From: an uncultured Pseudomonadales bacterium
Lineage (GTDB): Bacteria; Pseudomonadota; Gammaproteobacteria; Pseudomonadales; Azotimanducaceae
Assembly (NCBI GenBank): GCA_964445675.1
Contig: CAYUMA010000564.1
Location: 1-43,034 of the forward strand
Reading direction: 5' to 3'
DNA length: 43,034 bases
A program made the translations under genes and the position numbers. The notes beneath the pieces are model-generated. The model was not told the DNA's origin and ran no database searches. It saw only the letters and a list, made by a program, of their open reading frames with translations. Positions 5,971 to 42,441 of the stretch are shown piece by piece (within the stretch, counting starts at the first letter, position 1; each line of letters starts with the position of its first letter).

Positions 5971-6582
5971 ATGGCGAAACGACGCACGCTCACTTTTTTG
6001 ATCCTGATCAGCGGCCTCTTGCTGTTACGCGCAAGCGGCGCGCAGGCAGACGAGATGCCGTCGCATGCCGCCCACGAGGCTCCGAGGACCACGATTTCGA
6101 CCGTACAGTATGCGGTGCCCGCCCTGACCCTGATACGCGACGACGGTCGCAGCGTGTCTCTGGCCGAAGAAATGAACGACGGGCGGCCGGTACTGCTCAA
6201 CTTCATCTTCACCACCTGCGGCTCGGTGTGTCCGCTGATGAGCCAGATGTTCGCGCAGTTTCAGAGCAAGCTGGGGGCTCACGCCGACACGGTGCACCTG
6301 ATGTCGATCTCGATCGACCCGGAGCAGGACACCCCGGCGCGACTCACCGAGTATGCGCAGAAGTTCGGCGCCGGGTCGCAGTGGCAGCATTACACCGGCA
6401 GCGTCGAAGCCAGCCTCACAGCGCAGCGCGCCTTCAACGTCTACCGGGGCGACAAGATGAGTCACGCGCCGGTCACGTTGCTGCGCGCGGCGCCCGGTGA
6501 GCCGTGGCTGCGCATCGACGGTTTCGTGACACCGGATACCCTGGAGAGCGAATACCGCAAGCTGGTCGCAGCGAAGTCATAA
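5971..6582 (+). CDS. SCO1/SenC family thioredoxin-fold copper chaperone
   Basis: Signal/anchor MAKRRTLTFLILISGLLLL. Diagnostic motif LLNFIFTTCGSVCP (CxxxC) and downstream SIDPEQDTP. Confidence 0.8.
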   Translation: MAKRRTLTFLILISGLLLLRASGAQADEMPSHAAHEAPRTTISTVQYAVPALTLIRDDGRSVSLAEEMNDGRPVLLNFIFTTCGSVCPLMSQMFAQFQSKLGAHADTVHLMSISIDPEQDTPARLTEYAQKFGAGSQWQHYTGSVEASLTAQRAFNVYRGDKMSHAPVTLLRAAPGEPWLRIDGFVTPDTLESEYRKLVAAKS

Positions 6583-8195
6583 GCGCCTCACTTCCAGGTC
6601 GGCTGCGCGCGCTTGGGCTCAGCCTGATAGTCGCGTCATCTGCGGCGGTTGCCGCAACGCCAGCGGACGGCGAGCGGATCTATCGCGCCGGCGTCCTGCC
6701 ATCAGGCGCACCGCTTCGTGCAACGCGCGAAGGCAACCAACCCATCGACGGCGCAACGACCGCCTGCATCAACTGCCATCGCCGCAGCGGTCTCGGCATG
6801 AAGGAGGGTCGCAACAGCATTCCGCCGGTCGCCGGCATTTACCTCTTTCATCCCCGCGCGACCGCCGCCAACACCGTCGACCTGCCCTTCGTCGACGACA
6901 TGCGCCCCGATCGCGATCCCTACACCGATGCAACGCTCGCACGCGCCATTCGCGAGGGACTGGCCGCCGATGGCAAGCCGCTCAGTTACCTGATGCCACG
7001 TTACAACCTCGACGACGCCGCGATGGCGGAGCTGATCGCCTACCTCAAGGCGCTGTCGCCCGGCGCCGTTCCGGGGGTCACCGATTCGGTGCTGCACTTC
7101 GCAACGATCGTGACCCCGGATGCGGACCCGATCAAACGTCAGGGCGTGCTCGACGTGCTGACGAAATTCTTCGAGGACAAAAATCACTACGTCCGCGCGC
7201 AGGCCCCGCGGGTGCAGTCCACGCGCCGGATGATGTTCAAGGTGAATCGCCGTTGGGAGCTGCATGTATGGGAACTCACCGGCGCACCCGACACGTGGGA
7301 GTCGCAGCTGCGTGCGAAGTTGGCCGTCGAACCCGTGTTCGCAGTTATTTCCGGCGTCGGCGGAGCGACCTGGCTGCCGGTGCATCGTTTCTGCGAGGCT
7401 GCATCCCTGCCGTGCCTCTTTCCCAATGTCGATGTGCCGGTCGTCGCGGAAGAGGATTTTTATGATCTGTACCTGTCGAAGGGCGTGCTCCTCGAAGCGC
7501 AGCTGATTGCCCAATCGCTGAAGACGCAAGGCAGCAGCGCGCGGCGCGTCGTTCAGGTCTATCGTGCGGACGATGTCGGAAAGGCGGCCGCCGATGCATT
7601 GTCTGCAATGCTCGCGGATGCAGCCGTCACGACTGTTACCCGAGAGGTTGCGTCGCACCCAAAGGGGCTCGAACGGGCGCTGCGTGATGTCACGCGCGAC
7701 GATGTCGTGGTGCTGTGGCTGCGGGCGAGCGATATCGCGTCGCTTGGCGCACTGCCCGCCGGGGCGACCAACGTATACCTCTCCGGAGAGATGGGCGGCC
7801 TCGAGCGCGCACCGCTCCCTGCCGCGTGGCGTGATGTCACGCGCATCACGTACCCGGTCGATCTGCCGAGGCAGCGCCTCGTGGGTCTCGACCGCGCGCT
7901 CGGCTGGTTTCGTATCCGGCAAGTTCAGGTGGTGGACTTGAAGTCGCAAGCCGATACCTATCTTGTCTGTGGCATCGTTTCCAACGCGATCAACCACATG
8001 GTCGACACCTTCGTGCGCGACTACCTGATCGAACGCATCGAGGCGATGCTCGAGCACAGCATCGTCACGGGCTATTACCCAAGGCTCGCGCTGGCGCCGC
8101 ATCAACGGTTCGCGTCGAAGGGCGGTTACCTCGTGCGCTTCGCGGGACCCACCGGCAGCCAGGTGGTTGCCGAGAGTGACTGGATCGTTCCGTAG
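6504..8195 (+). CDS. Fusion of a monohaem c-type cytochrome module with a type-1 periplasmic solute-binding-like domain
   Basis: Single CXXCH (CINCH) about 70 aa into the protein, after signal-like LRALGLSLIVASSAAVAA. The remaining ~450 aa look like a Leu/Ile/Val-binding-type PBP. Start is uncertain: the only canonical in-frame start is GTG 6504, which overlaps the SCO1 gene by 79 nt. Confidence 0.6.
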   Translation: MAAHRRFRDTGYPGERIPQAGRSEVISASLPGRLRALGLSLIVASSAAVAATPADGERIYRAGVLPSGAPLRATREGNQPIDGATTACINCHRRSGLGMKEGRNSIPPVAGIYLFHPRATAANTVDLPFVDDMRPDRDPYTDATLARAIREGLAADGKPLSYLMPRYNLDDAAMAELIAYLKALSPGAVPGVTDSVLHFATIVTPDADPIKRQGVLDVLTKFFEDKNHYVRAQAPRVQSTRRMMFKVNRRWELHVWELTGAPDTWESQLRAKLAVEPVFAVISGVGGATWLPVHRFCEAASLPCLFPNVDVPVVAEEDFYDLYLSKGVLLEAQLIAQSLKTQGSSARRVVQVYRADDVGKAAADALSAMLADAAVTTVTREVASHPKGLERALRDVTRDDVVVLWLRASDIASLGALPAGATNVYLSGEMGGLERAPLPAAWRDVTRITYPVDLPRQRLVGLDRALGWFRIRQVQVVDLKSQADTYLVCGIVSNAINHMVDTFVRDYLIERIEAMLEHSIVTGYYPRLALAPHQRFASKGGYLVRFAGPTGSQVVAESDWIVP

Positions 8196-8988: not shown

Positions 8989-10623
8989 ATGACCGAAGAA
9001 GCGCCAAACGCAGCGCCGCGGACCAGCCCCGCTGTGGTTGGCACAGACCCCACATTTCGAAGCGCCTTGGCCCAGGCGGCAATCGTGCGGGCGAAACAGG
9101 AATGGGAATCCACGGTAGATACGCTCCCGCAGGTCGTGTGCGTGCTCGACGGCGATCACAATATCGTGCGCGCCAACCGCGCGGTGGAAATGTGGGGTCT
9201 CGGCAACGTACGCGAATTGCCCGGGCGGAATCTGCACTCGCTACTGCACCCGAGGTGTGATGAAGCGGGCTGCGAACTGTCACGCCACCTCGATGAATCA
9301 TGGGGCTCACTGGCCGCGGGCGGCGCCGCCGATTTCGAGTTGTGTGATACGCGGCTCGGGCGCGTGCTCAACGTCGCGTTGCGACCGATCACGGTTGGCG
9401 CGGCCGACGACACCCTTTCTCCCATCAATCTCGCCGTCATCGTGCTGTCCGATATGACGGCCGCGAAGCACGTCCAGGAGACGCTGCAGACGACGAACCA
9501 GGAGCTCGACACGCGCACGCGCGAACTGGATGCGTCGCGTGACCAACTGTCGATGTTGTCGTCGCAATTGATGACAACGCAGGAAGACGAACGCAAGCGT
9601 ATCGCGCAGGAACTGCACGACAGCATCGGCCAGTCGCTTAGCGCCATCAAATATTCGCTGGAAACCGCTCTGGCAATGACGCACGGCCGCGATGCGAGCG
9701 CGCCGCGGAATCTGCTAACGACCACGATCGGCCGCGTCCAGGAGACGGTCGCGTCGACGCGCGCCATCGCCATGAACCTACGCCCTTCGATACTCGATGA
9801 CGTGGGCGTCGTTTCGGCGGTGCGTTGGTTCTGCCAGGAATTCGGCGACATCTACGCCACGATTCGAGTACACATGGACCTCGCGTTGAGCGACGGCGCA
9901 GTGCCTGAGCATCTCGCGACGCCGATCTTCCGCACCGTTCAGGAGTCCCTCAACAACGTTGCGAAGCACGCGCAGGCTAAGAATGTATTCGTCTCGCTGC
10001 GTAGCGACGCGCTGCTCACGTTGGAGGTGCGTGACGACGGAGTTGGATTCGATCCGAAGGACGCGGGCATGGCACTACGCGATGGCCACGGCCTCAGCGG
10101 CATGCAGGACCGCGCCGCGACGACTGGTGGGACGTTCACACTGCAATCAAAGCGTCGAGGCGGGACCGTGATGCGCGTCTGCTGGCCGAACAGCGTGTCT
10201 GCGCCAGCGCCACGCAACGGCAAGCGGCTGGGGTTCACGCTGCTCGAACTGCTCGTCGTCATGGTGATCATCGGCATTCTCGCGGGCTTCGTCGGCCCGC
10301 GTTACTTCGCGCAAGTGGGCAAGTCGCAAGTGAAGGCCGCCATGGCGCAGGTCGATGCGTTCGACAAAGCGCTCGACCAATACCGCGTCGACATGGGGCG
10401 CTACCCGACGAGTGAGGAAGGTCTCGAAGGTCTGCAACAGGCGCCCGCCGGAGAGGCGGCGTGGGGCGGGCCGTATCTGAAGAAAGCGGTTCCAGCCGAT
10501 CCGTGGGGCCGCGTGTATGTCTATGTCTCTCCTGGCACGAATGGTGATGCCGACATCCTGTCGTACGGCAAGGACGGGCGCTCCGGCGGCACGGGCGAGA
10601 ACGCCGACATTACCAACCGGTGA
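8989..10623 (+). CDS. Cytoplasmic PAS / HisKA_3 / HATPase_c histidine kinase (NarL-partner type); its ORF continues in frame into a GspG pseudopilin
   Basis: SD ggaggg lies 8 nt before ATG 8989. H-box ERKRIAQELHDSIGQSL, N-box ESLNNVAKHA, G-boxes DDGVGF and GHGLSGM. The kinase domain ends near GGTVMRVCWP, but there is no stop codon until 10623. Confidence 0.8.
   Translation: MTEEAPNAAPRTSPAVVGTDPTFRSALAQAAIVRAKQEWESTVDTLPQVVCVLDGDHNIVRANRAVEMWGLGNVRELPGRNLHSLLHPRCDEAGCELSRHLDESWGSLAAGGAADFELCDTRLGRVLNVALRPITVGAADDTLSPINLAVIVLSDMTAAKHVQETLQTTNQELDTRTRELDASRDQLSMLSSQLMTTQEDERKRIAQELHDSIGQSLSAIKYSLETALAMTHGRDASAPRNLLTTTIGRVQETVASTRAIAMNLRPSILDDVGVVSAVRWFCQEFGDIYATIRVHMDLALSDGAVPEHLATPIFRTVQESLNNVAKHAQAKNVFVSLRSDALLTLEVRDDGVGFDPKDAGMALRDGHGLSGMQDRAATTGGTFTLQSKRRGGTVMRVCWPNSVSAPAPRNGKRLGFTLLELLVVMVIIGILAGFVGPRYFAQVGKSQVKAAMAQVDAFDKALDQYRVDMGRYPTSEEGLEGLQQAPAGEAAWGGPYLKKAVPADPWGRVYVYVSPGTNGDADILSYGKDGRSGGTGENADITNR
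10171..10623 (+). CDS. gspG: Type II secretion major pseudopilin GspG, either nested in or fused to the kinase ORF
   Basis: Prepilin signature KRLG|FTLLELLVVMVIIGILA, with Phe+1 at 10234 and Glu+5. GspG body: QVDAFDKALDQYRVDMGRYPTSEEGLEGL...GPYLKK...DPWGRVYVYVSPG...DILSYGKDGRSGG. Possible internal starts are GTG 10168 and ATG 10171 (GAGG at 10157-10160) or GTG 10195. Confidence 0.75.
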   Translation: MRVCWPNSVSAPAPRNGKRLGFTLLELLVVMVIIGILAGFVGPRYFAQVGKSQVKAAMAQVDAFDKALDQYRVDMGRYPTSEEGLEGLQQAPAGEAAWGGPYLKKAVPADPWGRVYVYVSPGTNGDADILSYGKDGRSGGTGENADITNR

Positions 10624-16447: not shown

Positions 16448-17011
16448 GTGCGTTGCCGGAACTACCTGCAGCGGCGTCCGCGCGGCTTCACCTTTCTCGG
16501 AATTCTGATTGCCATCGCAATCCTCGGGGTAGCACTTTCCGCGGCCGGGTCCCTCTGGACAACGGTCGCGCAAAGGGACCGCGAGGCCGAGCTTCTCTTC
16601 GTGGGCGAGGCATATCGAAGTGCGATTGCGAGTTACTTCCGAGCCGGTGGGCGGCTGCCGCTGGAGTTGCAGGACCTCGTCGACGATCGCCGAATGCCGG
16701 CCCCGCGCCGTCATCTGCGTCGCCTTTACAACGATCCGATCACGGGGCGATTCGACTGGGAACTCATCCTGGCGCCTGACGGTGGAATCATCGGGCTGCA
16801 CAGCGCGTCGCAGAAGACCCCGATCAAGCGCGCGAACTTCCCCGTGAACGAAGCGGAGTTCACCGACGCGCAGTGCTACTGCGACTGGACATTCCTGTTC
16901 AGCATGTCGCGGCAGCGTCGACCCTCGAGCAACGGACACGTGACCGACGCGCCGCCGCTCGGCACATCGCTCGAGAATGGCAGCGCAACAGCTCCGTCGG
17001 ATGGACTCTGA
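16448..17011 (+). CDS. Atypical minor pseudopilin lacking Glu+5
   Basis: GTG 16448 gives the leader VRCRNYLQRRPRG|FTFLGILIAIAILGVALSA, where position +5 is Gly. The track ORF start at 16241 overlaps the previous gene in another frame and was rejected. Confidence 0.6.
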   Translation: MRCRNYLQRRPRGFTFLGILIAIAILGVALSAAGSLWTTVAQRDREAELLFVGEAYRSAIASYFRAGGRLPLELQDLVDDRRMPAPRRHLRRLYNDPITGRFDWELILAPDGGIIGLHSASQKTPIKRANFPVNEAEFTDAQCYCDWTFLFSMSRQRRPSSNGHVTDAPPLGTSLENGSATAPSDGL

Positions 17012-17152
17012 AATAGCCCGACCTCTCAGTAGGTTCCCGCACAAACCTTACAAAGAACTTGGAGTCAATCAGGTGTTACCCGGGATATATTGGCCTCAAT
17101 GTAGTCAAGCATTGAACCGGGGCAGGGATCACCCCTATGAGGGGTCACTCTG

Positions 17153-17860
17153 TTGAACGCGATGCAGTCAGACGTTCGGCTTCGATTGGTTCTGGTGGAC
17201 GATCACGCCATCCTACGCGAGGGATTACGCGCACTGCTGGGGCTCGAGATGGATCTCGAGGTGGTTGGCGAGGCCGACAATAGCGACGATGGCTTCGACA
17301 TCGTGAAGCAGATGCAGCCTGACGTGGTCGTTACGGATCTCGGCTTACCGCGGCGCAGCGGCATCCAGTTGATCACGCGGGTGCGTGATGCCGCACCCAA
17401 CGTGCGCGTACTGGTGCTGACGGTACATAACAGCGAGGCGCACATCAGGGCCGCGCTGTCGTCGGGCGCAAGTGGCTACGTACTCAAGGAATCGAGCCGT
17501 GCGGATCTCCTGGACGCGATCCGGACGGTCGCGCGCGGACAGCGCTATCTGTGCCCACCCGTCTCCGCGAAGGTGGTGTCGGGATTCCTCGGCGACAGCG
17601 AATTCCGCGCGGCGGTACCCCTGCAAGGTCTGACGAACCGCGAACGAGAGGTCCTCGCGCTGGTCGCACTTGGTAAGTCGAACAAGCGCATCGCGTCGCA
17701 GCTTATGCTCAGCGTGAAGACGATCGAAAAGCATCGCTCAAACTTCATGCGCAAGCTCAAGCTCCACAACACGGCGGCCGTGACGATGTTCGCCATCTGC
17801 AACGAACTCGTGTCGACCGGTGAGGCGCCGGTAGTTGAGCACCCGGTAACGGGCCGGTAA
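17153..17860 (+). CDS. NarL/FixJ-family response regulator (REC + LuxR-type HTH)
   Basis: RLVLVDDHAILREGL...DVVVTDLGLP (acceptor Asp). C-terminal LTNREREVLALVALGKSNKRIASQLMLSVKTIEKHRSNFMRKL. TTG 17153 has GAGGGG 8 nt upstream; ATG 17162 is an alternative start. Confidence 0.9.
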   Translation: MNAMQSDVRLRLVLVDDHAILREGLRALLGLEMDLEVVGEADNSDDGFDIVKQMQPDVVVTDLGLPRRSGIQLITRVRDAAPNVRVLVLTVHNSEAHIRAALSSGASGYVLKESSRADLLDAIRTVARGQRYLCPPVSAKVVSGFLGDSEFRAAVPLQGLTNREREVLALVALGKSNKRIASQLMLSVKTIEKHRSNFMRKLKLHNTAAVTMFAICNELVSTGEAPVVEHPVTGR

Positions 17861-18316
17861 CGACCAAATCGGGCGAGGATCTACGGCGCGTCGGCATTTC
17901 ACGTGCTAGCTGGCGGGCGCTTTCCCCCTTCGATTCGTGCTCGACTTCGCGTTCTTACGATCCCCATTCGCACTTCACACGGAGCCGACAGCGTCGACGC
18001 AACCCGTGACTACGGTGAGTGCATGTCACGCGCCTACCGAGAAGGCGAACCACCGCAGCACCGCTCACGCAGTCATACGCTTTCATGTCGCAACCTGCGC
18101 ATTGTTGACACTTTCGACGATGGCCAAATCGGGCGCGCGTGTCGCAACTTCACGGCGTCCGTCGCGACCCGATTCCAGCGCCCCTTACCGAAACCGTCAT
18201 GCAGCGGGTAGTCGCCAACAAACGCGTTCGCGATCTCGCGTGCTCCAGTAGACGCCGAGCACTCCCATACCCGTTTGGTTCGCAGTGTCGTCGTCGCACC
18301 GCCGCCGACACGTGTG

Positions 18317-19948
18317 TCAAGCAGGCCCGCCCTGGGACGGTCGTGGCACGCCCGCCTCGGCGTGCGCGAGATGACGCCGCACCGCGTCGACGAGTTGCGG
18401 CAATGCTTCGGCGGCGTCTCCCTTACTCGCGTCGAGCCAATGCGAGGTGTTCAGGAAGTACCCCAGGGCATCCGGCAACGGTGCTTTGTCAATCCGCAAC
18501 GAAATGACCGGGTGGCGCTTCGACATCGCGCGTTCGACCTCTCGCAGCACATGGGGCGATGTCGCTGCGTTGCGCGACAGGATGAGCACCATGACCTTCG
18601 CGACATCCATGGCGTGCACGATGGCATCTGGGTAGAGATCGCCAGGTGTCACATCGCGCGCCGCGACCCAGCACTTCATACCCTCGCGTTCCAGCGCCGC
18701 ACAAACGGCATCGGCAACGGCGATGTCTTCTGAGGCGACGCTGAGAAACACGTCCCGGCCTGCGGCGGGAATTTGGCCTGCACCGGGCCGTGTTGTGGAC
18801 GAGCCTTTCGCTTCGGCGGCCGCTGTACTCCTCCGACGCGTGCCGAGCACGTTGTACGCACTGATGGGGCGCTTGAAGCCGCGCAACTGAAGTTCCCCGA
18901 CCGGAGCGGATTCGAAGTGGCTCTCCACCACCATGAGCAGCCGGCGCGAGACCAGGATCTGGCCGTGCCGCGCCTCCCCGCACAGTCGCGCGGCGAGATT
19001 TGTCACCGCGCCGATCGCGGCGTAGTCCCAACGCCCTTCGAAGCCGATCTCGCCGATCGTCGCAAAACCGTTCGCAATCCCGATCCCGAGGCCGAGATCG
19101 TAGTCGCGCTTGTCCCAGCGCGTTGCCTTGAGCTGCTCGACCCTGTCGCGGATTTCGAGCGCCATGTCGACCGCGCTGCGCTCAGGCTGCTCCACCGGCA
19201 CGGGGTCATTGAAGAAGATCATCATCCCGTCCCCGGTGAAGCGCTCGAGCGTTCCCTTGTGCTGCACAATCAGCTGTCCCACCTCTTTGTGGAACTCGCT
19301 GAGCACCATCATCATTTCCTCGGGTTCCTCCGACTCCGCGAAAGCGGTGAAGCCACGCAGGTCGAGGAAGGCAACGCTGACGTCGCCGCGGTGCGGGCGC
19401 AGCGGATCGTCGGTGGCGCCGCTGACGATCAGCTCCGCGAGCTGCGGCGAAAAGAAGCGTTTCAGCCGCGAGAGGTGCTCGATCGCCGTGACCTGCTCCG
19501 CCACCCTCGCCTCCAGCGTCCGGTTCCAATCGCTGAGCTGCGTCGCCTGCTGTCCGACGAGCCGGTGCAGCTCGCCAATTCGCAGCAACGAGCGCACTCG
19601 CGCCAAAAGCTCCTGGCGATTGATCGGCCTCGTCAAAAAATCGTCCGCACCTGCCTCGATGCCCTTCACGCGCTCCTCGGCCGGATCGAGGGCCGTAATC
19701 ATGACAACCGGAAGCAGCGTCGTGGTCGGGTCCGCGCGAATTCGACGGCACACCTCGTAGCCATCGAGGTCCGGCATCATCACGTCGAGCAGCACGGCAT
19801 CCGGTGCGAATTCTCCGATCGCCGCTAGACCTTCGCGGCCCGAGTGAGCAATCCGCACGTCGTAACCGTGCAGCGCGAGAACGTCGCCCAACAGTTTTCC
19901 GTTAGCGGGTTGGTCGTCTACGACTAAGAGGCGGCCGCGCGTGGTCAT
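18317..19948 (-). CDS. Three-domain signalling protein: receiver (REC), class III adenylate/guanylate-type cyclase, and C-terminal TIR domain
   Basis: REC: LLVVDDQ...LLDVMMPDLDG...ADDFLTRP. Cyclase: VAFLDLRGFT, RFTGDGMMIFF, YAAIGAVTNLAARL. TIR: DVFLSVASEDIAVADAVCAALEREGMKCWVAARDVTPGDLYPDAIVHAMDVAKVMVLILSRNAATSPHVLREVERA. ATGA overlap with the upstream CheY gene. Confidence 0.8.
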   Translation of the reverse strand: MTTRGRLLVVDDQPANGKLLGDVLALHGYDVRIAHSGREGLAAIGEFAPDAVLLDVMMPDLDGYEVCRRIRADPTTTLLPVVMITALDPAEERVKGIEAGADDFLTRPINRQELLARVRSLLRIGELHRLVGQQATQLSDWNRTLEARVAEQVTAIEHLSRLKRFFSPQLAELIVSGATDDPLRPHRGDVSVAFLDLRGFTAFAESEEPEEMMMVLSEFHKEVGQLIVQHKGTLERFTGDGMMIFFNDPVPVEQPERSAVDMALEIRDRVEQLKATRWDKRDYDLGLGIGIANGFATIGEIGFEGRWDYAAIGAVTNLAARLCGEARHGQILVSRRLLMVVESHFESAPVGELQLRGFKRPISAYNVLGTRRRSTAAAEAKGSSTTRPGAGQIPAAGRDVFLSVASEDIAVADAVCAALEREGMKCWVAARDVTPGDLYPDAIVHAMDVAKVMVLILSRNAATSPHVLREVERAMSKRHPVISLRIDKAPLPDALGYFLNTSHWLDASKGDAAEALPQLVDAVRRHLAHAEAGVPRPSQGGPA

Positions 19949-20331
19949 CCGGGTTTTCCTCGCAACGCGAGTCCCTCACCAACGAGTTCGGCAAGTCTGA
20001 GTACGCGGATCGGCTTGGTCTCATAGCCGTCGAAACCCGCCGCGAGAATCTGATTCCGCTCCTCGGGGAGAGCCGACGCGGTTAGCGCGATCACAGGGAC
20101 GTCGTGCGTCGCCGGGTCTGCGCGCAGGCAACGCAGTGCCGCGACGCCATCCATGCCGGGTAGTTGGATGTCCATCAGCACCAGATCGGGTCTGCGTTCC
20201 TTGGCCATCGCGAGACCCTGTTCGGCGGTACCCGCTTCGACGACTTCGAAGCCGCGAAAGCGCAGAACGTCCCGCACGAGCTTGCGGTTGATCTCAACGT
20301 CCTCGATCACCAGGATCAGCTCACCCGCCAT
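19945..20331 (-). CDS. Single-domain CheY-like response regulator
   Basis: Start at ATG 20331 (MAGELILVIEDVEINRKL...DLVLMDIQLPGMDG...FDGYETKPI). The track ORF start at 20559 lies inside the kinase gene and was rejected. Confidence 0.85.
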   Translation of the reverse strand: MAGELILVIEDVEINRKLVRDVLRFRGFEVVEAGTAEQGLAMAKERRPDLVLMDIQLPGMDGVAALRCLRADPATHDVPVIALTASALPEERNQILAAGFDGYETKPIRVLRLAELVGEGLALRGKPG

Positions 20332-23326
20332 GAGGCCCTCCGGCGCCGGCATCCGTGGCGCGCAGGTCGTGTGTGGTTTCACGCTCCCACTGCTGCCGCC
20401 GCTCGATCGCCGCGCGCACGAGCTTGACGAACTCCTCGCGGTCGAAACCCGATTTGCGGCCAAGATGCGCGATGCGGCCTTGCAGGCGGCGTTTCTCCGC
20501 GATGGAGAGTGACCGCATTGTAAGGACCACGATCGGAATGTGCGCAGTCGACGGATCATCCTTCAGTAGCTTCGAAGTCTCAAAGCCGTCCATTCGCGGC
20601 AGAATGAGGTCGAGAACGATCAGATCCGGGACATGTGCGCGTGCCATTTCGATGCCTTCCTCGCCGGAAAGGGCCTCCAACACGTGGAACCCGTGCGGTT
20701 GGAGTGTGGCGCGGATCAGCTCGATTGATTGTGGATCGTCGTCGATGGCAAGTACCGTCTTGGCAGCGTTATGGGGTTTTGCCGCATAGACCCGGCGGAT
20801 CGTCTCGACGAGATGGACTGGGTCGTAGGGCTTGATCAAATAGTCATCGGCGCCGAGCGCGAGGCCCTTGCCGCGTTCCTCGACGATCGAAACGATCACG
20901 ACCGGGATGTCTGCAATCTGCGGATCGCTGCGCAGCGCAGTCAGGAATTCCCAGCCGTTCAGTTCCGGCAACAGGATATCGAGAACAATCGCACGCGGAC
21001 GCAGGCGTCTCGCGAGGTTGAGACCCGTCCTGCCGTCATTGGCAATCTGAACCGCGATCCCACTGTCGCGCAGGTGAATCGACAGGAGGTTGGCGGAAGC
21101 AACATCGTCTTCGACCACTAGCACGAATTCACCGGAAGGCGAAGTCGAGGTCCTTCGCTCGCGCAACGGATTTGGCGGGCCGACGTTGGAAGCCGACAGT
21201 GCGGCGTGCGCAATGTCGCGTAGCGGCAGCGAGAACGTGAACGTGCTGCCCTCGCCGAGCTCGCTCTCGACCCACAGCCGGCCGCCGTGCAGCTCCACGA
21301 TCCGACGCGCCAGCGTGAGGCCGAGCCCGGTGCCTTCCACTTTGCGGGTGTACTCCGTTTCGGCCTGGCGGAATGCGTCGAAGATCCGCTCCTGGTCGCT
21401 TTCAGCGATACCAATGCCGGTGTCGATCACGTCGAACTCGATCATGTCGCCGGCAAGTCGGGCCTGTACCGTCACCGAGCCGCCCTCATCGGTGAACTTC
21501 ACGGCGTTCGTCAGCAGGTTGAGCATCACCTGTTTGAACTTACGCTCATCGGCGACGACCGACTGCGGACACCCGGTCGAGTCGAAGCGGAGCTTCACGC
21601 CGCGACGCTGCGCGCGCTCCTTGACGAGCGTGAACGCGTTGCCGAGCGCTGCGGGCAGATCGAACATGCTCGGCGAGAGCTCCATCTGACCCGCCTCTAT
21701 CTTCGACAGATCGAGGATGTCATTGATCAAATTTAGCAGGTGACGACCCGCCCCCAGGATGTCGTTGAGGTACTCGTCCTGTTTGTCATTGAGCTCCCCG
21801 AACATGCGCTCGATCAGCACCTCCGAGAACCCGATCACGGCGTTCAGCGGGGTGCGCAGCTCGTGCGACATGTTCGCGAGGAACTCGGATTTGTGTCGGT
21901 TGGCGGCCTCGATCTCGCGTCCCTTCTGCTCGAGCTCCCGAAACAACTGCGCGTTTTCTATGGCGCTGGCCGCATGCGCAGCGAAGGTCTGCAGCACACG
22001 CAGCGTCGCGACGCCAATTGTGCGCCGCGAAGAGCGGTTGTCGCAGCCAAGCACGCCGATTGCGTTGCCGCGCACGCGCAGAGGCAGCAGCACGGACACG
22101 CTATCGGGCGCGGGCATGTCCGGGTTCGCCTGATCCTCCAAACCCAGCGGGTGGGGCTCATCGCGCCCCTCGACGTATAGCAGCGCGACGCCTTCGCGAC
22201 TGACGCGCGCAAGTGCGCTCTCCCCTGCGAAAGGCAGCACGGTATCTTGCAGCATGTCGAACTCGGTATCCGGAACCCCGGCAGTCGCGAGCGTCAGCAG
22301 ATGTTCGCCGTCTGCGTCGAGCGCCCAAACGCAGAGACGATCAATGCCGACCAGCTCGCGCGCGCCGTCTAGAACCCGCGTCAGGGCGTCGCGGAGTGAC
22401 AGCGGCTCCAGCATCGACGCGGAGAGCTGATACAGCTGCTCCAGCTCCGCCGTCCGCTTGCCGATCCGCCCTTCGAGCGTCTGGTTGAGATCGCGAAGGT
22501 CCCGCATCGCCGATTCCTTCTGCGCGATGTTGCTCTCCAGCGAGCGAGCCATCTCGTTGAAGGTCGACGCGAGCTGGCCGATCTCGTCCCGCGTCTCGAC
22601 CGGGATCGTCTGATCCAGATGACCGTCCGCGATGGCCCGCGCGCGGGCGGTCAGCTGGTTGATCGGACGGGTGATGTGCTGGGAGACGAAATACACCGAC
22701 AGCAGCGACAACAGAACGAAGCCGGCCGCAAGCCCGGTCCAGAGCCGTATCAGAGCCGTTGTGCCACGCTGCACGGAGGCGAGCGACAGTCCGACCCGCA
22801 CGAAGCCGGTGTTGCGGCTCATGCTGCCCGACTCGCGCTCCGGACCGAGGCCAAGCACCGCCTCGTCGGGCGTACCGAGCGACGTCGTCAGGATGGGCGC
22901 AAAGAACTCGAGATACCGACGGCTGGGCTCCGCCTGCGACGCCGATGGACCCTTCTCCCGCAACATCCCCTCGCGCAGCACGTCTGACAGCGGTGCAGCG
23001 TCACGGGTGAGCCCCGACGCGGCCAGCGCACCGCCGTCGGGGCCGTAAATGAAGACGTAGGCAACGTCCGCGTCGCCGCCGACGGCTTGAACTGCAGGCC
23101 GCAGCGACTCGGCGTCCTCGGCAATCACTCCAAGCTCGCTGGCCGCCGCCAGGGTGCTGGCTATGTCGAGGCCGCGCTTCTGGAACTGGTCCTGCGAGAG
23201 ACTGCGCTGGAGCTGGATGCTCGCGAGCCCGACGAGCGCGAATACGGCCACCAGGGTCGGCACCAGCGACCAGAAGATCCGCGCGCGGAGCGTCGAGCGG
23301 TCGACAAGCCGGCCCCAGATGGTCAC
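20321..23326 (-). CDS. Hybrid sensor histidine kinase: 2 TM with a periplasmic loop, HAMP, GAF, HisKA, HATPase_c and two receiver domains
   Basis: TM1 IFWSLVPTLVAVFALVGLASI and TM2 LWTGLAAGFVLLSLLSVYFV. HAMP: PINQLTARARAIADGHLDQ. H-box FLANMSHELRTPLN. DTGIGI and GTGLGL boxes. REC1 VLVVEDD...VLDILLPELNG; REC2 VLAIDDD...VLDLILPRMDG. GTGA overlap with the OMP gene. Confidence 0.9.
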   Translation of the reverse strand: MTIWGRLVDRSTLRARIFWSLVPTLVAVFALVGLASIQLQRSLSQDQFQKRGLDIASTLAAASELGVIAEDAESLRPAVQAVGGDADVAYVFIYGPDGGALAASGLTRDAAPLSDVLREGMLREKGPSASQAEPSRRYLEFFAPILTTSLGTPDEAVLGLGPERESGSMSRNTGFVRVGLSLASVQRGTTALIRLWTGLAAGFVLLSLLSVYFVSQHITRPINQLTARARAIADGHLDQTIPVETRDEIGQLASTFNEMARSLESNIAQKESAMRDLRDLNQTLEGRIGKRTAELEQLYQLSASMLEPLSLRDALTRVLDGARELVGIDRLCVWALDADGEHLLTLATAGVPDTEFDMLQDTVLPFAGESALARVSREGVALLYVEGRDEPHPLGLEDQANPDMPAPDSVSVLLPLRVRGNAIGVLGCDNRSSRRTIGVATLRVLQTFAAHAASAIENAQLFRELEQKGREIEAANRHKSEFLANMSHELRTPLNAVIGFSEVLIERMFGELNDKQDEYLNDILGAGRHLLNLINDILDLSKIEAGQMELSPSMFDLPAALGNAFTLVKERAQRRGVKLRFDSTGCPQSVVADERKFKQVMLNLLTNAVKFTDEGGSVTVQARLAGDMIEFDVIDTGIGIAESDQERIFDAFRQAETEYTRKVEGTGLGLTLARRIVELHGGRLWVESELGEGSTFTFSLPLRDIAHAALSASNVGPPNPLRERRTSTSPSGEFVLVVEDDVASANLLSIHLRDSGIAVQIANDGRTGLNLARRLRPRAIVLDILLPELNGWEFLTALRSDPQIADIPVVIVSIVEERGKGLALGADDYLIKPYDPVHLVETIRRVYAAKPHNAAKTVLAIDDDPQSIELIRATLQPHGFHVLEALSGEEGIEMARAHVPDLIVLDLILPRMDGFETSKLLKDDPSTAHIPIVVLTMRSLSIAEKRRLQGRIAHLGRKSGFDREEFVKLVRAAIERRQQWERETTHDLRATDAGAGGPHGG

Positions 23327-24603
23327 CGCGGCGCTCCAAACGTGTATTCAAAGCCGAACGCCCAGACTGAATCGGCGCGCAGACCATTATCGCGGTTGAG
23401 CGGCACAATGAAGTTGGTGAGCACCACGACCGAGCGGTAGGCCTCGAATTTGACGCCGAACGCGGCATCCAAAATGGAAGTGCTTTCCGACGATTCCGAT
23501 GGCTCCCAGCGACCCACGATCTGCGCGACGGTGGTCACGCGCGGGGTCACGCGCACATCGAACCCGGCTTGATATTGCACGTCGTCAGCCCCACCGCTCA
23601 CGAACTGATAGCCTGCGTTCAGATACGTCGTCACCCTCCCAAATGCCTTGTCCGCGACCAGCATACCCATCCAGCCCCAGTTGCCGGTGCCGAGGAGATT
23701 GTTCTCGTCTCCGGTCGGCGCTTCGAGGTGTGCGACGAATGCGAGCGCGGGCTTCCAACCGTCGTCGTTCCCGACGTGGTATTTCGCACGCACGCGGAGA
23801 TCACCGATTCCGCTGGCGCTGCCCTTCACGGATGAATCCGGCACGTCTTCATCTCCCGTCGCGGGATCGGCAAAGTTGTGCACATCTGTGCTCGGCGGAT
23901 TCGTTGCGTTGCGCTCGATGCTGGCGTGAGCATGTGCCTGCAGATCGTTCCTGAGCAACGGAATCGCAATCCCTACATCGAGGTCTTGCGTGATCCCAAA
24001 ATTCCCGTACACCGCGTAGACGTGCTGCGTGAGCTCAACGTCCATGTCGACGCGCACACGATCCGTTTCGACGTCGAAGAGGTAGGGGGGGGCGAGGTTC
24101 GGATTCGGTCCGAGGATGCCGTCGCCATTCACGTCATCATGAGTGAAAAACAGCGTCAGATTGTGGAGATTCTCACCGTTGAAGTACTTGTAATCGACAC
24201 GAGCGTACGTAAACCCCACGCTGAGTCGGTGCTCTCCGATGGTCTCGGCGCGTTCCGCGAGAATCGGACCGAGGCTATCAGTGGTGCGCACGGGAACCCC
24301 GGTCTCGAAATCGAACGTGAAGCTCGCCGCCGTCGAGTTGAGCGCCAAAAATCCGAGCTTGCTCGAAAGACTACTGCCGAGTTGATTCAGCTCCTCCAGC
24401 GATGAAGAGTTGAAGTGAGGCGCGTGACTGGTGCCATTGAATGTCGTCGTGTCGAGCATGATTCCATCGCCGCCGTACAGGCTCGTGACCAACGTCGATA
24501 GATCGTCCGCCCGTGCCCCCGCAGGCGCCAACGCCGCCAGCAAAACAGCGGCTTGGGCACATGCGACTAGGCGCGATGTGTACAGCGATCGGTGGCGACT
24601 CAT
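23323..24603 (-). CDS. Outer-membrane beta-barrel protein (putative channel)
   Basis: Signal peptide ...AVLLAALAPAGARA|DD. Alternating amphipathic strands and an aromatic-rich C-terminal strand VWAFGFEYTF. SD gaggag upstream of ATG 24603. Confidence 0.65.
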   Translation of the reverse strand: MSRHRSLYTSRLVACAQAAVLLAALAPAGARADDLSTLVTSLYGGDGIMLDTTTFNGTSHAPHFNSSSLEELNQLGSSLSSKLGFLALNSTAASFTFDFETGVPVRTTDSLGPILAERAETIGEHRLSVGFTYARVDYKYFNGENLHNLTLFFTHDDVNGDGILGPNPNLAPPYLFDVETDRVRVDMDVELTQHVYAVYGNFGITQDLDVGIAIPLLRNDLQAHAHASIERNATNPPSTDVHNFADPATGDEDVPDSSVKGSASGIGDLRVRAKYHVGNDDGWKPALAFVAHLEAPTGDENNLLGTGNWGWMGMLVADKAFGRVTTYLNAGYQFVSGGADDVQYQAGFDVRVTPRVTTVAQIVGRWEPSESSESTSILDAAFGVKFEAYRSVVVLTNFIVPLNRDNGLRADSVWAFGFEYTFGAPR

Positions 24604-24625
24604 GATAGAACTCGACTCCTCATTT

Positions 24626-25585
24626 TTATTGAATCAGCTCACTCGCGCTGATCAATATGCTCTGTGGAATCTCGACACCAAGCTTGCGGGCAGCTTTAAG
24701 GTTAACGGTGAGGGAGACGCGCCGCGCCGTTGTTGGCGGAACCTCCGCGGGGCTTTTGCCGTCGAGGATGATGCGCGCGAGCTCGCCCGCCTGGCGCCCG
24801 ATGTCCTCGCTGCTCGCGAACGTGAGTGCGAGCAGCGCGCCCATCTCGGCCTGCCGCTCCGAAACTCCGAGAATCGGGATGCCGCCCCGATGCGACGCCA
24901 GAAACACATACTTCGTGACCGGCGGCGCGAGCAGGGTTTCATCGGGCAGATACCAGAAGGCATCGATGCCCTCGCGTTGGAGCGCGTCGAAGGCCTGGAT
25001 CGCCTCCCCAACCGTTCGTGCGTCACGCGCGATCAAGTCAATGCCTAACGGCCCGGCAAGTTCTCGCGCTTCGCGCATCAAATAGCCAGTTTTCGATTCA
25101 TTGAAGACGACTCCAATCCGTCGCACCGCAGGACCCAGTTGGCGCAGAAGCCGCAGGTTGTCGGCGACCGGCACGTTCATGCTCGCACCCGTGACCCCGG
25201 TTACCCCCGTCCCGATCATACTGGCCGGATTCAACACCATCGCATAGACGACGGGAACGTCGCTGGGCTGATCAAGCGCCGCCTGCAATGCCCAGACGCC
25301 GATCGCGAACACGAGATCCGGCTTCTCGCCCGCGGCAGTGAGGAACTCCCGCCCACGCTGGACGCTGCCGTCCATCTGACGGACCACGATTTCGTGTTCC
25401 GAGTCCAGGCCGTCCTTGAAGCCGAGCAGTGCTTCTTCATAAGCCTGAACCGGCGCGCTCATCAGAACTGTCACCTGGCGTCCGCCGGCCCCAACGGCAG
25501 CGCCGAGCCAGACAAGGCCGACTGAGAGCACGATGGCAGACGATAGACGCACTGCTATCCCTGTGTCCTTTTTTCGTTGGGTCAT
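24626..25585 (-). CDS. Periplasmic ABC_sub_bind-type substrate-binding protein with no transporter partners nearby; probable sensor accessory
   Basis: Start at ATG 25585 (MTQRKKDTGIAVRLSSAIVLSVGLVWLGAA). Pattern VTVLMSAPVQAYEEALLGFKDGL...PDLVFAIGVWALQAA...VPVVYAMV...TGVTGASMNVP...RIGVVFNE...IDAFWYLPDE...IPILG is typical of the PF04392-like family. Confidence 0.7.
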   Translation of the reverse strand: MTQRKKDTGIAVRLSSAIVLSVGLVWLGAAVGAGGRQVTVLMSAPVQAYEEALLGFKDGLDSEHEIVVRQMDGSVQRGREFLTAAGEKPDLVFAIGVWALQAALDQPSDVPVVYAMVLNPASMIGTGVTGVTGASMNVPVADNLRLLRQLGPAVRRIGVVFNESKTGYLMREARELAGPLGIDLIARDARTVGEAIQAFDALQREGIDAFWYLPDETLLAPPVTKYVFLASHRGGIPILGVSERQAEMGALLALTFASSEDIGRQAGELARIILDGKSPAEVPPTTARRVSLTVNLKAARKLGVEIPQSILISASELIQ

Positions 25586-25845
25586 CCTACCCCGCGCGCG
25601 GCCTTTGCCGTAGTCCCGACTCGTAGTCGCGATGCGCGACCGCGTTGCGGCTTGCGCCGGTACCAAGGCGTCCGGCGATTGGCAAGAATCGGCGGAGGAG
25701 AAAGCGAGAACACCGGCTGCTCCTTTATTTCACCAGCCCCCGCACAAGATCGTCGGCATAGATGGTGGACGTGCCGACCACGCTCGCCGGAGCGCCCCCT
25801 TTGTCAAATTGGTTGAAAAACCTCATTCGCCCTGACGCCCTGGCG

Positions 25846-26334
25846 TCAAAACCCGAAATCATCTTGCTCAGTTCCATCGGGAATCGAAGCCTGAGTTGCC
25901 GACATCCGATCCACGTGCTGGTCGTCGTCCAGACGTACGAGTAGCGGTTCGTCGCGGTGTCTTACCTCAACGTACTTCCAGGCGCACGAGAGCGTTTCTT
26001 CGATGACATCGACTGGCGCACCCGTCGTGCAAGCGACTGCGTGCCAAGTCGGATAGCTGGCGGCAAAGATATCGAGGCCCTGGTTGCCAATGAGGCTGAA
26101 CTTGACCGGGACGGCGCTGCCGGCCTTGGCGCGATTGATCACCGGCAGATTGTCAACCGGTTGGAAGAAGCCGCTGAACTGGAACACCACCGTGTAGCTG
26201 ACGCTCGCGGAGTTCTCGTTGCCGGCTTTGTCCGTCACTGTGCAGCTGCGAAGAACATCCAGGACGAACGCATCGTCGGATTGTGTGAAGGGCTGCAGCT
26301 CGACCGCGTCGCCAACGAGTACGGCGCCATCGCA
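25846..26334 (-). pseudogene. 5'-truncated fragment of a PxKF-domain (Ig-like surface protein) gene
   Basis: CTVTDKAGNENSASVSYTVVFQFSGFFQPVDNLPVINRAKAGSAVPVKFSLIGNQGLDIFAASYP...APVDVIEET carries the PxKF signature (PVKF). There is no plausible N-terminus or signal peptide, and the upstream part of the track ORF is antisense to the IstB remnant. Confidence 0.55.
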
Positions 26335-26634
26335 CAAGCTTCGGCCGATGCATCGGCGACTTTCAGCGACTTTCTCGAGCGCGTGTTGAGAGTCGAATGC
26401 GATGCGCGTCATGAGCGGTCGCGGCAGACGCTGCTCAAGTTCGCGACACTGCCGGCGATCAAGACGTTGGAAGGCTATGACTTCAACTTCGCCAGTGTCG
26501 CGCCCAAAACCCAGATCCAGGAACTGGCGAGTCTGTCGTTTTTGATTCGGTCTGGGCCTGGGCGCGGATGCAACAAAGAGTCGCATTCAGCGATTCGCGA
26601 TACGCCTACTGAAAGCGGCTTGAGATCACGCTAA
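26329..26634 (+). mobile_element. istB: Remnant of an IS21-family istB helper-ATPase gene: N-terminal segment only, Walker region degenerate or missing
   Basis: SATFSDFLERVLRVECDARHERSRQTLLKFATLPAIKTLEGYDFNFASVAPKTQIQELASLSFL matches the conserved IstB N-terminal region. The expected GPxGxGKTHLA is replaced by SGPGRGCNKESHS. No istA and no inverted repeats were seen. Confidence 0.55.
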
Positions 26635-31687: not shown

Positions 31688-33397
31688 TCACGGTGTCAGC
31701 GCTGCGTGGTCCTTGCCGTGGCAGCTCAAATAGCACTGGCCGGTGAAAATCCCGGTGTCCTGGTAATACAGCCGGCCCATGCTGTCGGGCTGCACGATGT
31801 TCAGGTCGAAGTTGATGAGATGGGCATTGTTGACTGCGTTGCCTTGGCTGGCGCCGATGCCGTGTGGATCGTGACAGGCGGAGCAAGGCGTGTTGCTGGT
31901 CACGATGTGCCGGTAGTGCTCCTTGAAGCTCTGATCGGCGAGGATGCCGGCGCGGCTGTGGCAGCCATAACAGAGTTCGTAGGTGTCCGGCCTTTCCGTG
32001 GTGTTGTCCGCGGTCAGGTAGTTCTTTGCCAGCAGATAGGGGTTGTTCGAGCCATGCGGTCCCCGGGGTCCGAAGGGGTCGTCGTTGCTGTGGCAGTCGG
32101 TGCAGGAAATCCGGCTGGATGTGGTATAGGGCGGCAGTAGGCTCGGCACATTCGGATTGACGCCGACCGCCGTCACCGGATGGAACGAGGGGTTAGCCGG
32201 ATCGAATTCCAGACGGGTATTCAACTGCGGGAGCTGACGCGTAATGGGCAGGCTGTTGCTGACGTTGTTGTCGGCGTGGCACTTGAAGCAAATCTCGTAC
32301 TCGTTCTGGGCATACCCGACCGCCAGGCCCGCCGCATCGATCCCGCTGACCCCCTGGGTGGCACCGGACACGAACGGTGCGCCGCGTGAGGGCGCGGCGT
32401 TGGTCTGGTGCGGGTTATGGCAATCGGCGCATTCGACGTGCTTCGGCGCACCGCCGTTGGCGAAGTCTTCAGCGGCGTCATGCACGCCTGTGTAATTCTG
32501 CACGAAGTGACCGTAGAGCTTGGTCACTTCGTCGCCAATGTTCTTGGTCGCCACGTTGCCGGTATGACAGACCAGGCAGTTGTCTTCTTCGGTGGCGTAG
32601 TTCATTAGCTGCGAATGACCGCCCGCCGCGTGCGAGACGTGGCAGCTGCTGCAGCCGTTCTCCGCCACCGTGTCGTAGGGTAAGCCGGGCCAGGGGTCGG
32701 CGCCGCTACCGTTCCACTGCTGGCTCGAGAGCGCATGCCCGCTCAGCAGCCAGCCGTCGTTGACATGGCAGCTGGTGCACAGGGCGGAGTATTGATTGGA
32801 CATCACCAGAAACTTGCCATAGAGGTCATCGTGCGGGTCATGGCAGGCTGTGCACTGCAGCTCCCGGTTCCTGTCCAGTCTCACCTGCGGCGGCAGATTG
32901 CTCGGGTCGGCCAGCTCCGGGTTGCCCGCGGCGAGGGTGCTGTCGTAGGCGAACGATACCGGGTGATCGTCCGACAGGTCGGAGCCGAGCCGGGTGCGAC
33001 CTTCCGGGATAAAGCGCATGCCACCCGCGAAGGGCACCTCCGCGGGGCGAGTCAGCAACGCGCCCAAAGCGACGGTGCCGTCATGACAGCTCAGGCACAG
33101 CTTGGAGGCGCCCGTCGGCTGCCCTACCGTTGCCTGCAGCGTGGAACTCTGGTACGGGGTGTAGTTGGTCGTCGTATCTTGTCGGTTCCACAGGAAGGGG
33201 ACGTCCCGCCGCGCACTATGGGGCACGTGGCAGAACACGCAGACCTCCCCTTCGGTGGTCGATTTCACCGGTCCAGGTCCAGAGATTGACAGGTTGTGTC
33301 GAGTGTCCAGGATGCTGGCCAGGGGCAGGGTGTCTGGAATGCCCGCGATGATCAGCCCGAGCATGCTCGCACCGAGTAGCCGTGGCGTGATGCTCAT
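31688..33397 (-). CDS. Multihaem c-type cytochrome with 12 haem-binding sites (11 CXXCH + 1 CX3CH), doubled-CXXCH/OmcS-like N-terminal module
   Basis: Motifs in order: CVFCH, CLSCH, CTACH, CTSCH, CSSCH, CLVCH, CADCH, CFKCH, CTDCH, CYGCH, CSACH, CYLSCH. Hydrophobic N-terminus LLGASMLGLIIAGI. ATGA overlap with the upstream NHL gene. Confidence 0.9.
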   Translation of the reverse strand: MSITPRLLGASMLGLIIAGIPDTLPLASILDTRHNLSISGPGPVKSTTEGEVCVFCHVPHSARRDVPFLWNRQDTTTNYTPYQSSTLQATVGQPTGASKLCLSCHDGTVALGALLTRPAEVPFAGGMRFIPEGRTRLGSDLSDDHPVSFAYDSTLAAGNPELADPSNLPPQVRLDRNRELQCTACHDPHDDLYGKFLVMSNQYSALCTSCHVNDGWLLSGHALSSQQWNGSGADPWPGLPYDTVAENGCSSCHVSHAAGGHSQLMNYATEEDNCLVCHTGNVATKNIGDEVTKLYGHFVQNYTGVHDAAEDFANGGAPKHVECADCHNPHQTNAAPSRGAPFVSGATQGVSGIDAAGLAVGYAQNEYEICFKCHADNNVSNSLPITRQLPQLNTRLEFDPANPSFHPVTAVGVNPNVPSLLPPYTTSSRISCTDCHSNDDPFGPRGPHGSNNPYLLAKNYLTADNTTERPDTYELCYGCHSRAGILADQSFKEHYRHIVTSNTPCSACHDPHGIGASQGNAVNNAHLINFDLNIVQPDSMGRLYYQDTGIFTGQCYLSCHGKDHAALTP

Positions 33398-42414: not shown

Positions 42415-42441
42415 GGCACCTCCACCTCGCACGGCCGTTCG

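Follow-up and report, generated by a model that had tools for sequence, protein, structure and literature searches.

Experiments on bacterial TIR domains have concentrated on anti-phage defence and on virulence factors. The majority of the bacterial TIRs that were tested are NADases, and most bacterial TIR NADases rely on the glutamate of a WxxxE motif (PMC11374754). TIRs also occur alongside cyclases: the TIR effectors of Pycsar and Pucsar anti-phage systems are proteins with a cyclic nucleotide-binding domain and a TIR (CNBD-TIR proteins), and they are activated by the product of the cyclase (bioRxiv 10.64898/2026.08.12.744502). Here we describe a gene from an uncultured Pseudomonadales bacterium (Azotimanducaceae; contig CAYUMA010000564.1 of assembly GCA_964445675.1) that encodes a receiver domain (REC), a class III nucleotide cyclase, and a TIR in one polypeptide. 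The gene is at 18317..19948 on the minus strand of a stretch of 43,034 nucleotides, which we call the window. Our best explanation, to which we give a probability of roughly 40%, is that the gene arose by a recent fusion in a physiological sensory operon and that its TIR is an NAD+ hydrolase. Both halves of the protein (the REC-cyclase and the TIR) are of known kinds, and their combination has no other instance in the databases that we searched. The literature that we searched contained no report of a REC-TIR or cyclase-TIR fusion either.

The reading frame is uninterrupted and encodes 543 amino acids followed by a TGA stop codon. We called domains with Pfam profiles and their curated cut-offs, and three domains scored above them (all coordinates within this gene are on the minus strand). 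Response_reg (PF00072) matches amino acids 8-119 (19592..19927) with 95 bits (cut-off 30.2, E = 4e-27); Guanylate_cyc (PF00211) matches amino acids 188-367 (18848..19387) with 70.5 bits (cut-off 21.9, E = 1.8e-19); and TIR_2 (PF13676) matches amino acids 400-519 (18392..18751) with 71.5 bits (cut-off 28, E = 1.1e-19). The protein also matches PF01582 (TIR), at 30 bits. An earlier reading of the DNA, made from its letters and open reading frames (the sequence-only reading), had described this order of domains in one polypeptide and had named the same three profiles for hidden Markov model searches, whose results bear it out. The receiver and the cyclase are separated by a helical transducer (amino acids 120-187, 19388..19591). 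When the full-length protein was modelled with AlphaFold2, one long helix spanned residues 111-162 and another spanned 168-176. (This model is of a monomer and was built with homologues of the REC-cyclase only, and its TIR part is uninformative.) The transducer includes the segment RLKRFFSP (R161-P168), which is invariant across the REC-cyclase family and resembles a transducer element of cyclases. Between the cyclase and the TIR lies a linker of about 30 residues (amino acids 368-399, 18752..18847, LGTRRRSTAAAEAKGSSTTRPGAGQIPAAGRD). Residues 373-398 have pLDDT (the model's per-residue confidence) of 27-44 and no secondary structure in the full-length model, and the linker is predicted to be disordered. 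The protein ends with a C-terminal helix and tail (amino acids 520-543; 18317..18391, including the stop codon), which were delimited by alignment to members of the TIR clade that is described below.

How the fusion formed is suggested by the TIR part's closest relative (P0121), which is encoded on a 1067-bp contig from an independent metagenome (L004). L004 contains, in order, the 3' end of a cyclase gene (with 87.6% identity to that of the window), one in-frame TAG, a spacer of 24-110 nt, and an open reading frame for a TIR, which is in the same frame as its cyclase and is 79% identical to the window's TIR at the protein level. Four derived changes (Y404V, I428V, P430A/S, and I447M) are common to these two TIRs and are absent from the rest of the clade. 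Because L004 keeps its cyclase and TIR genes separate by a single TAG, we interpret the window's gene as the product of stop-codon loss between adjacent genes, which makes it a Rosetta-stone event of which both states survive. The linker would be the former intergenic spacer, with the ancestral stop codon gone.

Comparing the DNA of the window and of L004, the coding sequences that flank the spacer are about 85% identical (by eye), while the spacer itself has diverged; its indels add up to 51 nt, which is divisible by three and preserves the frame. The ratio of non-synonymous to synonymous substitution rates (dN/dS, by the Nei-Gojobori method) comes to 0.12 in the TIR (bootstrap interval 0.07-0.21) and to 0.105 in the cyclase, with dS of 0.6-0.8. 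Since the two lineages parted, purifying selection has acted as strongly on the TIR as on the cyclase. The junction is different: its GC content at third codon positions (GC3) is 0.625, as compared to 0.73-0.90 in the domains, all three of its frames are stop-free, and 59% of shuffled linkers lack a stop as well (P ~0.59). The junction looks young. It carries no coding signature, and an open frame is likely to occur there by chance, so the fusion itself may be neutral. What is selected is the TIR and its adjacency to the cyclase, and the covalent link may be nearly neutral.

It is also conceivable that the fusion is an artefact (a consensus error) or a recent neutral read-through. The covalent link would then be functionally meaningless, and the TIR would still work as a separate small protein, as in L004. 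The fusion is a single instance, the low GC3 and the three open frames of the linker are what this explanation would lead us to expect, and L004 keeps the two genes separate yet in the same frame. Furthermore, the same contig has a second stop-less in-frame junction, at 8989-10623 on the plus strand, where a histidine kinase runs into a GspG pseudopilin (544 amino acids). It is not common to see a pair of these within 43 kb, and the consensus may be at fault. We nevertheless consider an artefact or accident improbable. The spacers of the window and L004 differ by the frame-preserving indels rather than by a single base, and typical assembly errors give frameshifts rather than clean sense codons. 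If there is no stop codon, then the ribosome must read into the TIR, which has been under selection and has stayed beside the cyclase. Because the TIR is selected and is kept beside the cyclase, a functional link between the two would stand even if the fusion is neutral.

The product of the second junction has HisKA_3 and HATPase_c at amino acids ~201-400, a prepilin motif (GKRLG|FTLLELLVV) at amino acids 412-435, and T2SSG at amino acids 439-543. A GTG near 10193 could start the GspG-type pilin independently.

The TIR itself has a well-predicted fold. An AlphaFold2 model of amino acids 395-543, built on 85 homologues, has a pLDDT of 89.9. Its top Foldseek matches in the PDB are almost all TIRs (Hydra TRR-2, MAL, RUN1, SARM1, SPARTA TIR-APAZ, AbTir, and BtpA), with template modelling scores (TM-scores) of 0.65-0.75 for the best matches. 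Together with the 71.5 bits for TIR_2, these matches place the C-terminus in the TIR superfamily, as the sequence-only reading had claimed.

To find its relatives, we searched 1.84 billion representative proteins with HMMER and obtained 248 matches at E <= 1e-30. Most of the full-length members of this clade have 660-750 amino acids, with the TIR at residues ~15-170. Genes from GTDB genomes show the layout: an N-terminal TIR, a linker, one transmembrane helix, a TolB_N-like segment (VAVLPFxDMSEKKDQEYFSDG...), and TPR repeats. The TIR is the sole cytoplasmic domain of a receptor-like family of ~680-amino-acid proteins, of which we found no description in the literature searched. Examples are at L007 5926-8001, at L009-L013, and at L006 8001-8738 and 10097-12118. 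The carriers are metagenome-assembled genomes labelled as Gammaproteobacteria or Steroidobacteraceae, and some genomes or contigs have more than one paralogue, in places as direct neighbours (L008 and L010; L009 and L015; two in L006). We collected 255 clade proteins, of which none contains a cyclase or a REC, and neither domain is encoded within 5-6 kb of the TIR in any of 19 genomic loci of the TIR clade. On plasmids and on phages, we found one weak match each to the TIR.

The window's TIR is 50-79% identical to members of this clade (50-68% to the receptor TIRs) and retains 49 of the 54 clade-conserved positions, among them the RDVxPG BB-loop (here RDVTPG). The window and L004 proteins both end about 24 residues past the TIR domain, before the transmembrane helix would begin, and the TolB_N-like and TPR module is absent from them. 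Judging by these similarities, the window's TIR derives from the cytoplasmic head of the TIR-TM-TolB_N-like-TPR receptor family (TM, transmembrane). It shares the fold, an RDxxPG BB-loop, and an alpha-C glutamate with receptor-type TIRs in general (Toll-like receptors (TLRs), Hydra TRR-2, and the bacterial family), which also give the best sequence matches among solved structures. Unlike them, it has no transmembrane helix or sensor half: it is soluble and is tethered to an enzyme.

There is a hint as to what the TIR does in the parent family. The periplasmic half of P0247 aligns weakly (well below the curated cut-offs) with TIGR04510 (E = 6.5e-12), which NCBIfam annotates as a peptide-modification-system cyclase, with HilA/EilA (E = 5.3e-10), and with CadC (E = 1.8e-7). 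The N-terminal heads of the TIGR04510, HilA, and CadC families are cyclase or winged helix-turn-helix domains. This hints that the TIR holds the position of the output domain in related receptors. We also searched with the TolB_N-like module for alternative cytoplasmic heads, and this returned short fragments only (240 amino acids or less), with no architectural information. As a separate observation, the top matches of the representative search include proteins with 4-7 tandem TIRs, each of them ~30% identical to the window's TIR (P0241, 876 amino acids; P0243; P0244; and P0302, 1773 amino acids).

Is the TIR an enzyme? The sequence-only reading had placed the glutamate of SPHVLREVERA at the catalytic position of NAD-cleaving TIRs. 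This is Glu470 (codon 18539-18541, minus strand). It is part of the predicted alpha-C helix, which spans domain residues 71-82, and it follows His466 by four residues. This is the register of the WxxxE motif (here HxxxE), so the placement holds by motif register; it rests on this register and on a profile alignment that ends at Ser464, rather than on a residue-level structural superposition. Glu470 occurs in 99% of clade members; Ser403, Asp432, Arg469, Glu472, and Arg473 are conserved as well. The tryptophan of WxxxE is replaced by His466 in 100% of the clade. NADase activity of AbTir requires the glutamate and a serine in beta-A (S140), and H141 is dispensable (PMC11374754). By the register of the FISH motif, S140 maps to Ser403 and H141 to V404. 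The tryptophan is strongly conserved in TIRs that make isomers of cyclic ADP-ribose (cADPR) and is less conserved in non-cyclising or non-catalytic TIRs, and it is dispensable in TcpC (PMC11374754). Because Glu470, Ser403, and Asp432 are kept but the cADPR-linked tryptophan is a histidine, we suggest that the window's TIR is a non-cyclising NAD+ hydrolase. We hold this tentatively, at slightly less than even odds, and rank it above a role as an adaptor. The TIR has the same fold as the NADase TIRs (TM-scores of 0.52-0.67 to chains of SARM1, AbTir, and BtpA) and has both the glutamate and the beta-A serine. Unlike them, it has the histidine, its sequence similarity to them is weak (E = 8e-3 to 7e-2), and ThsB_TIR scores below its cut-off.

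As an adaptor, the TIR would be non-catalytic: the soluble TIR would dock on the TIRs of the TLR-like receptors and recruit or regulate the cyclase, so that cyclic nucleotide (cNMP) synthesis would combine inputs from the phosphorelay and from the TIR receptors. This is consistent with the close similarity of the fused TIR to the receptor TIRs (the 50-68% identity and the 49 of 54 positions given above, including the BB-loop), with the TIR being the receptor proteins' only cytoplasmic domain, and with the several paralogues per genome or contig among the contigs that we examined. A flexible tether would suit a recruitment domain, and the tryptophan of WxxxE is missing. Also, the nearest solved relatives by sequence are scaffold-type receptor TIRs: the clade's profile matches Hydra TRR-2 (E = 1e-11), oyster TIR-STING (3e-11), and TLR1 (2e-6) better than it matches the NADases BtpA (8e-3), PdTIR (1e-2), and SARM1 (7e-2). 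However, the alpha-C pattern H-x-x-R-E-x-E-R is invariant and highly charged, and with Ser403 and Asp432 also kept, it looks like an active or ligand-binding site. Given in addition that most of the bacterial TIRs that were tested are NADases (PMC11374754) and that the 43-kb window contains no paralogue from the receptor family, we think that an adaptor is unlikely, but it is a serious contender and less improbable than an artefact.

Five co-directional genes, all on the minus strand, form a sensory cassette that ends with the fusion gene. Gene 1 (24626..25666, with the exact start uncertain) encodes a periplasmic substrate-binding protein (PF04392 ABC_sub_bind, 97.4 bits), and gene 2 (23323..24603) encodes an outer-membrane beta-barrel-like protein (PF13557 Phenol_MetA_deg, 38.1 bits). 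Gene 3 (20321..23326) encodes a hybrid sensor histidine kinase with sCache_4-like, HAMP, GAF, HisKA, HATPase_c, REC, and REC domains; Pfam detected no HPt domain in it. Gene 4 (19945..20331) encodes a single-domain receiver protein of 128 amino acids (REC by Pfam), and its stop codon overlaps the start codon of the fusion gene (ATGA). The kinase is therefore two genes upstream of the fusion gene, in the same operon.

The same five genes occur in identical order in a relative at 73% identity (L001/L002; L001 4334-11122). L001 has the substrate-binding protein and a 424-amino-acid gene 2 at the same positions, keeps the arrangement of the kinase (a 992-amino-acid orthologue) relative to the last gene, and has a last gene that stops after the cyclase (373 amino acids). 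The cassette is partly seen on two shorter contigs (L003 and L005). All four of these cassettes are without a TIR, and the genomic surroundings of the cassette differ in each locus. DNA homology to L001 and L005 starts at 20331-20336. Homology to L001, L003, and L005 ends at 18842-18849, where the cyclase domain also ends, and the genes downstream vary by locus. The usual last gene of this widespread cassette is a response-regulator nucleotide cyclase of ~371 amino acids.

We searched 5.8 billion protein clusters, and the 119 other relatives listed (62-87% identity, mostly 364-400 amino acids) have the REC and the cyclase only. A fused homologue would outscore all 119 of these, so we conclude that there is no second REC-cyclase-TIR protein among the 8000 candidates that were scored. 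The sequence-only reading knew of no characterised example of this architecture, and our search of these clusters is in line with that. Two relatives have unusual lengths. P0003 (520 amino acids) has an internal duplication of the N-terminal half of the cyclase, and P0024 (433 amino acids) has a duplication of the C-terminal half of the REC; each could be a tandem duplication or an assembly chimera on a short contig. Rfam gave no match across 17000-26500, and a scan of 17800-18900 for terminators and promoters gave nothing above chance.

The residues of the receiver were assigned by alignment to a sequence of E. coli CheY. Four of them match the canonical ones (D11, D12, T85, and D55 as the acceptor), which agrees with the acceptor aspartate of the sequence-only reading. 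By the same alignment, the conserved lysine (CheY K109) is replaced by Arg107 (codon 19628-19630). Arg107 occurs in 2 of the 118 family members, namely the fusion protein and its closest relative (P0002), and the other 116 have lysine. The best NCBIfam match of the receiver is the PleD-family REC (160.8 bits). As in PleD-type regulators, the output of the fusion protein is a nucleotidyl cyclase that would need to dimerise for activity, but this cyclase is class III rather than GGDEF, there is one REC rather than two, and there is the extra TIR.

The cyclase retains the metal-binding residues D196 and D240 as well as N317 and R321, as the sequence-only reading had found, and all four are invariant in the family. 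Its closest solved relative is the cyclase domain of CyaB from P. aeruginosa (PDB 3r5g, class IIIb; 104.6 bits). From a residue-level alignment to 3r5g, Arg236 is at the lysine position (ERFTGD versus DKFVGD in CyaB), and the second specificity position is Ala310 (WDYAAIG versus MDYTIIG, with threonine in CyaB), seven residues before Asn317. The sequence-only reading had the arginine right. It had given the aspartate of RWDYAAIG as the second residue, which is off by two residues: Asp308 is an adjacent, family-conserved aspartate and not the base-specifying residue. Its statement that the product cannot be called stands, now with Arg236 and Ala310 as the pair. Neither of the canonical purine-specifying pairs (Lys with Asp/Thr for ATP; Glu with Cys/Gly/Ser for GTP) is present. 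Across 118 family members, the first position is arginine in 114, and the second is glycine in 89 and alanine in 29. With an Arg + Gly/Ala pair and an otherwise intact catalytic core, the nucleotide product of the whole REC-cyclase family does not seem predictable. Arg97 of BcPycC, a possible counterpart of Arg236, is said to restrict the pocket to pyrimidines (bioRxiv 10.64898/2026.08.12.744502). Overall, the fusion protein resembles response-regulator class III cyclases in the phospho-acceptor pocket of its REC (D11, D12, D55, and T85), its helical transducer, both metal aspartates, and the Asn/Arg pair. It differs in its specificity pair (Arg + Ala rather than Lys + Thr/Asp or Glu + Cys/Gly), in the Arg107 that it shares with one relative, and in the C-terminal TIR, which is found in no other member of the family.

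We also considered whether this could be a Pycsar/Pucsar-like anti-phage system, in which a cNMP that is made upon infection activates a TIR NADase that aborts the infection, here with cyclase and effector fused and under two-component control. The resemblance is real in some respects. L004 encodes a class III-fold cyclase next to a TIR, and the window encodes both in one polypeptide; the order of the genes in L004, cyclase and then TIR, resembles that of Pycsar/Pucsar operons; TIR activation by oligomerisation is a feature of those systems; and the PycC models of PADLOC match the cyclase domain with up to 63 bits. These matches are no better than the generic Pfam match (70.5 bits), however. 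The structure 7r65, which we take to be a solved Pycsar cyclase (PycC), scores 24.9 bits, versus 104.6 bits for the physiological CyaB. Effectors of these systems carry a cNMP-binding domain joined to a TIR or to transmembrane helices (bioRxiv 10.64898/2026.08.12.744502). No cNMP-binding domain was found in the fusion protein or in the open reading frames of the window that were scanned. Fast evolution is described for the immune clades of cyclases (bioRxiv 10.64898/2026.08.12.744502), but this cyclase family evolves slowly (62-87% identity across many metagenomes, with the dN/dS of 0.105). The cyclase is part of a conserved sensory cassette that also encodes its kinase, no defence genes were found around it, and links to phages or plasmids are essentially absent. 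Given the missing cNMP-binding domain, the lack of a defence context, and a TIR from a receptor-type clade, we regard a Pycsar-like system as very improbable.

Other defence systems were tried as well. For Thoeris, ThsB_TIR scored 18.9 bits versus a cut-off of 21.2, and PADLOC's ThsB gave E = 0.0074; no gene for a ThsA-type effector (SIR2, Macro, SLOG, or TM) was found in the window. We rejected an origin of the TIR from CBASS-type, Thoeris, or Pycsar systems, as it belongs to the receptor-type clade. Families for defence or for signal receptors were found neither in the genes of the operon nor in 20 other large open reading frames of the window. With a kinase in the same operon and no defence genes in the open reading frames scanned, the context is two-component rather than that of a phage sensor, as the sequence-only reading had thought. 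By these comparisons, the locus is not Pycsar/Pucsar or Thoeris, and it would serve signalling or metabolic control rather than phage defence.

The neighbours of the cassette in the window include genes for T2SS and pilin proteins, a NarL-type regulator, a DUF6607 protein, and a spermidine-synthase/TPR protein. There are also multihaem cytochromes (MtrC/MtrF-like, with paired CXXCH motifs), NHL-repeat proteins, and a flavocytochrome c sulfide dehydrogenase, at 31688-33397, 36491-37159, 38326-39459, 39736-40770, and 41128-42432 (minus strand). This cluster points to a host organism capable of extracellular electron transfer or of sulfur metabolism. Three other large open reading frames have no Pfam match at E <= 1e-5 (29-4477, plus strand, 1482 amino acids; 6504-8195, plus strand, 563 amino acids; and 34452-36497, minus strand, 681 amino acids).

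Returning to a recent fusion with a TIR that hydrolyses NAD+, we propose the following scenario. In one sub-lineage, a soluble TIR module would have been cut from the N-terminal head of the receptor family and set right behind the cyclase gene. The stop codon between the two genes would then have been lost in the genome of the window, which gave the REC-cyclase-TIR protein. The kinase would phosphorylate Asp55 of the REC, and the long helix and the transducer segment would switch on the cyclase dimer to make a cNMP, whose base we cannot call. Class III cyclases are obligate dimers. The two TIRs of the dimer, on their disordered linkers of ~30 residues, would form a second module whose activity depends on proximity: an oligomeric change that is driven by phosphorylation would raise the local concentration of the TIRs, which is a known trigger for TIRs. 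If so, the same sensory input would alter the levels of both cNMP and NAD+ or ADP-ribose.

The sequence-only reading had the TIR gated by a two-component signal. The two-component context is borne out, but the predicted disorder of the linker (pLDDT 27-44) speaks against the part in which the REC gates the TIR. Because the linker is predicted to be disordered, direct allostery from the REC to the TIR is unlikely, and induced proximity is plausible. The product of the cyclase has no evident route to the TIR either, as no cNMP-binding domain turned up.

Several observations weigh against our explanation. The link between the cyclase and the TIR is seen on two contigs only, one of which (L004) is just ~1 kb, and the fusion is seen on one. 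We found no more cyclase-TIR neighbours in the GTDB genomes or JGI metagenomes that we scanned, only receptor-type TIRs. As discussed above, the junction looks young, and the fusion itself may be neutral. Arg107 in the receiver may alter phospho-signalling. With a flexible linker, phosphorylation would have no control over the TIR except via the oligomeric state. Finally, His466 and the scaffold-type receptor TIRs that are the clade's nearest solved relatives count against NAD+ hydrolysis, and the TIRs of TLRs keep the same glutamate, so the glutamate alone does not prove catalysis.

A broader possibility is non-immune signalling. The TLR-like TIR receptors would signal by TIR assembly or by NAD+ products that their TIRs make, and the REC-cyclase-TIR protein (and its precursor in L004) would wire them to a cNMP synthase under two-component control. 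We consider this doubtful, but if it is true, then it would be a bacterial counterpart of signalling from receptor TIRs to adaptor TIRs, integrated with cNMP signalling.

It is surprising that purifying selection keeps a TIR at the output end of a conserved operon for environmental sensing. L004 and the window are a before/after pair of a Rosetta-stone fusion, and such a pair argues cleanly for cooperation between the cyclase and the TIR. If the fusion protein or the receptor proteins signal physiologically, whether by NAD+ cleavage or by TIR-TIR assembly, then the roles of bacterial TIRs would extend beyond immunity, and there would be a tractable model for the gating of TIRs by induced proximity.

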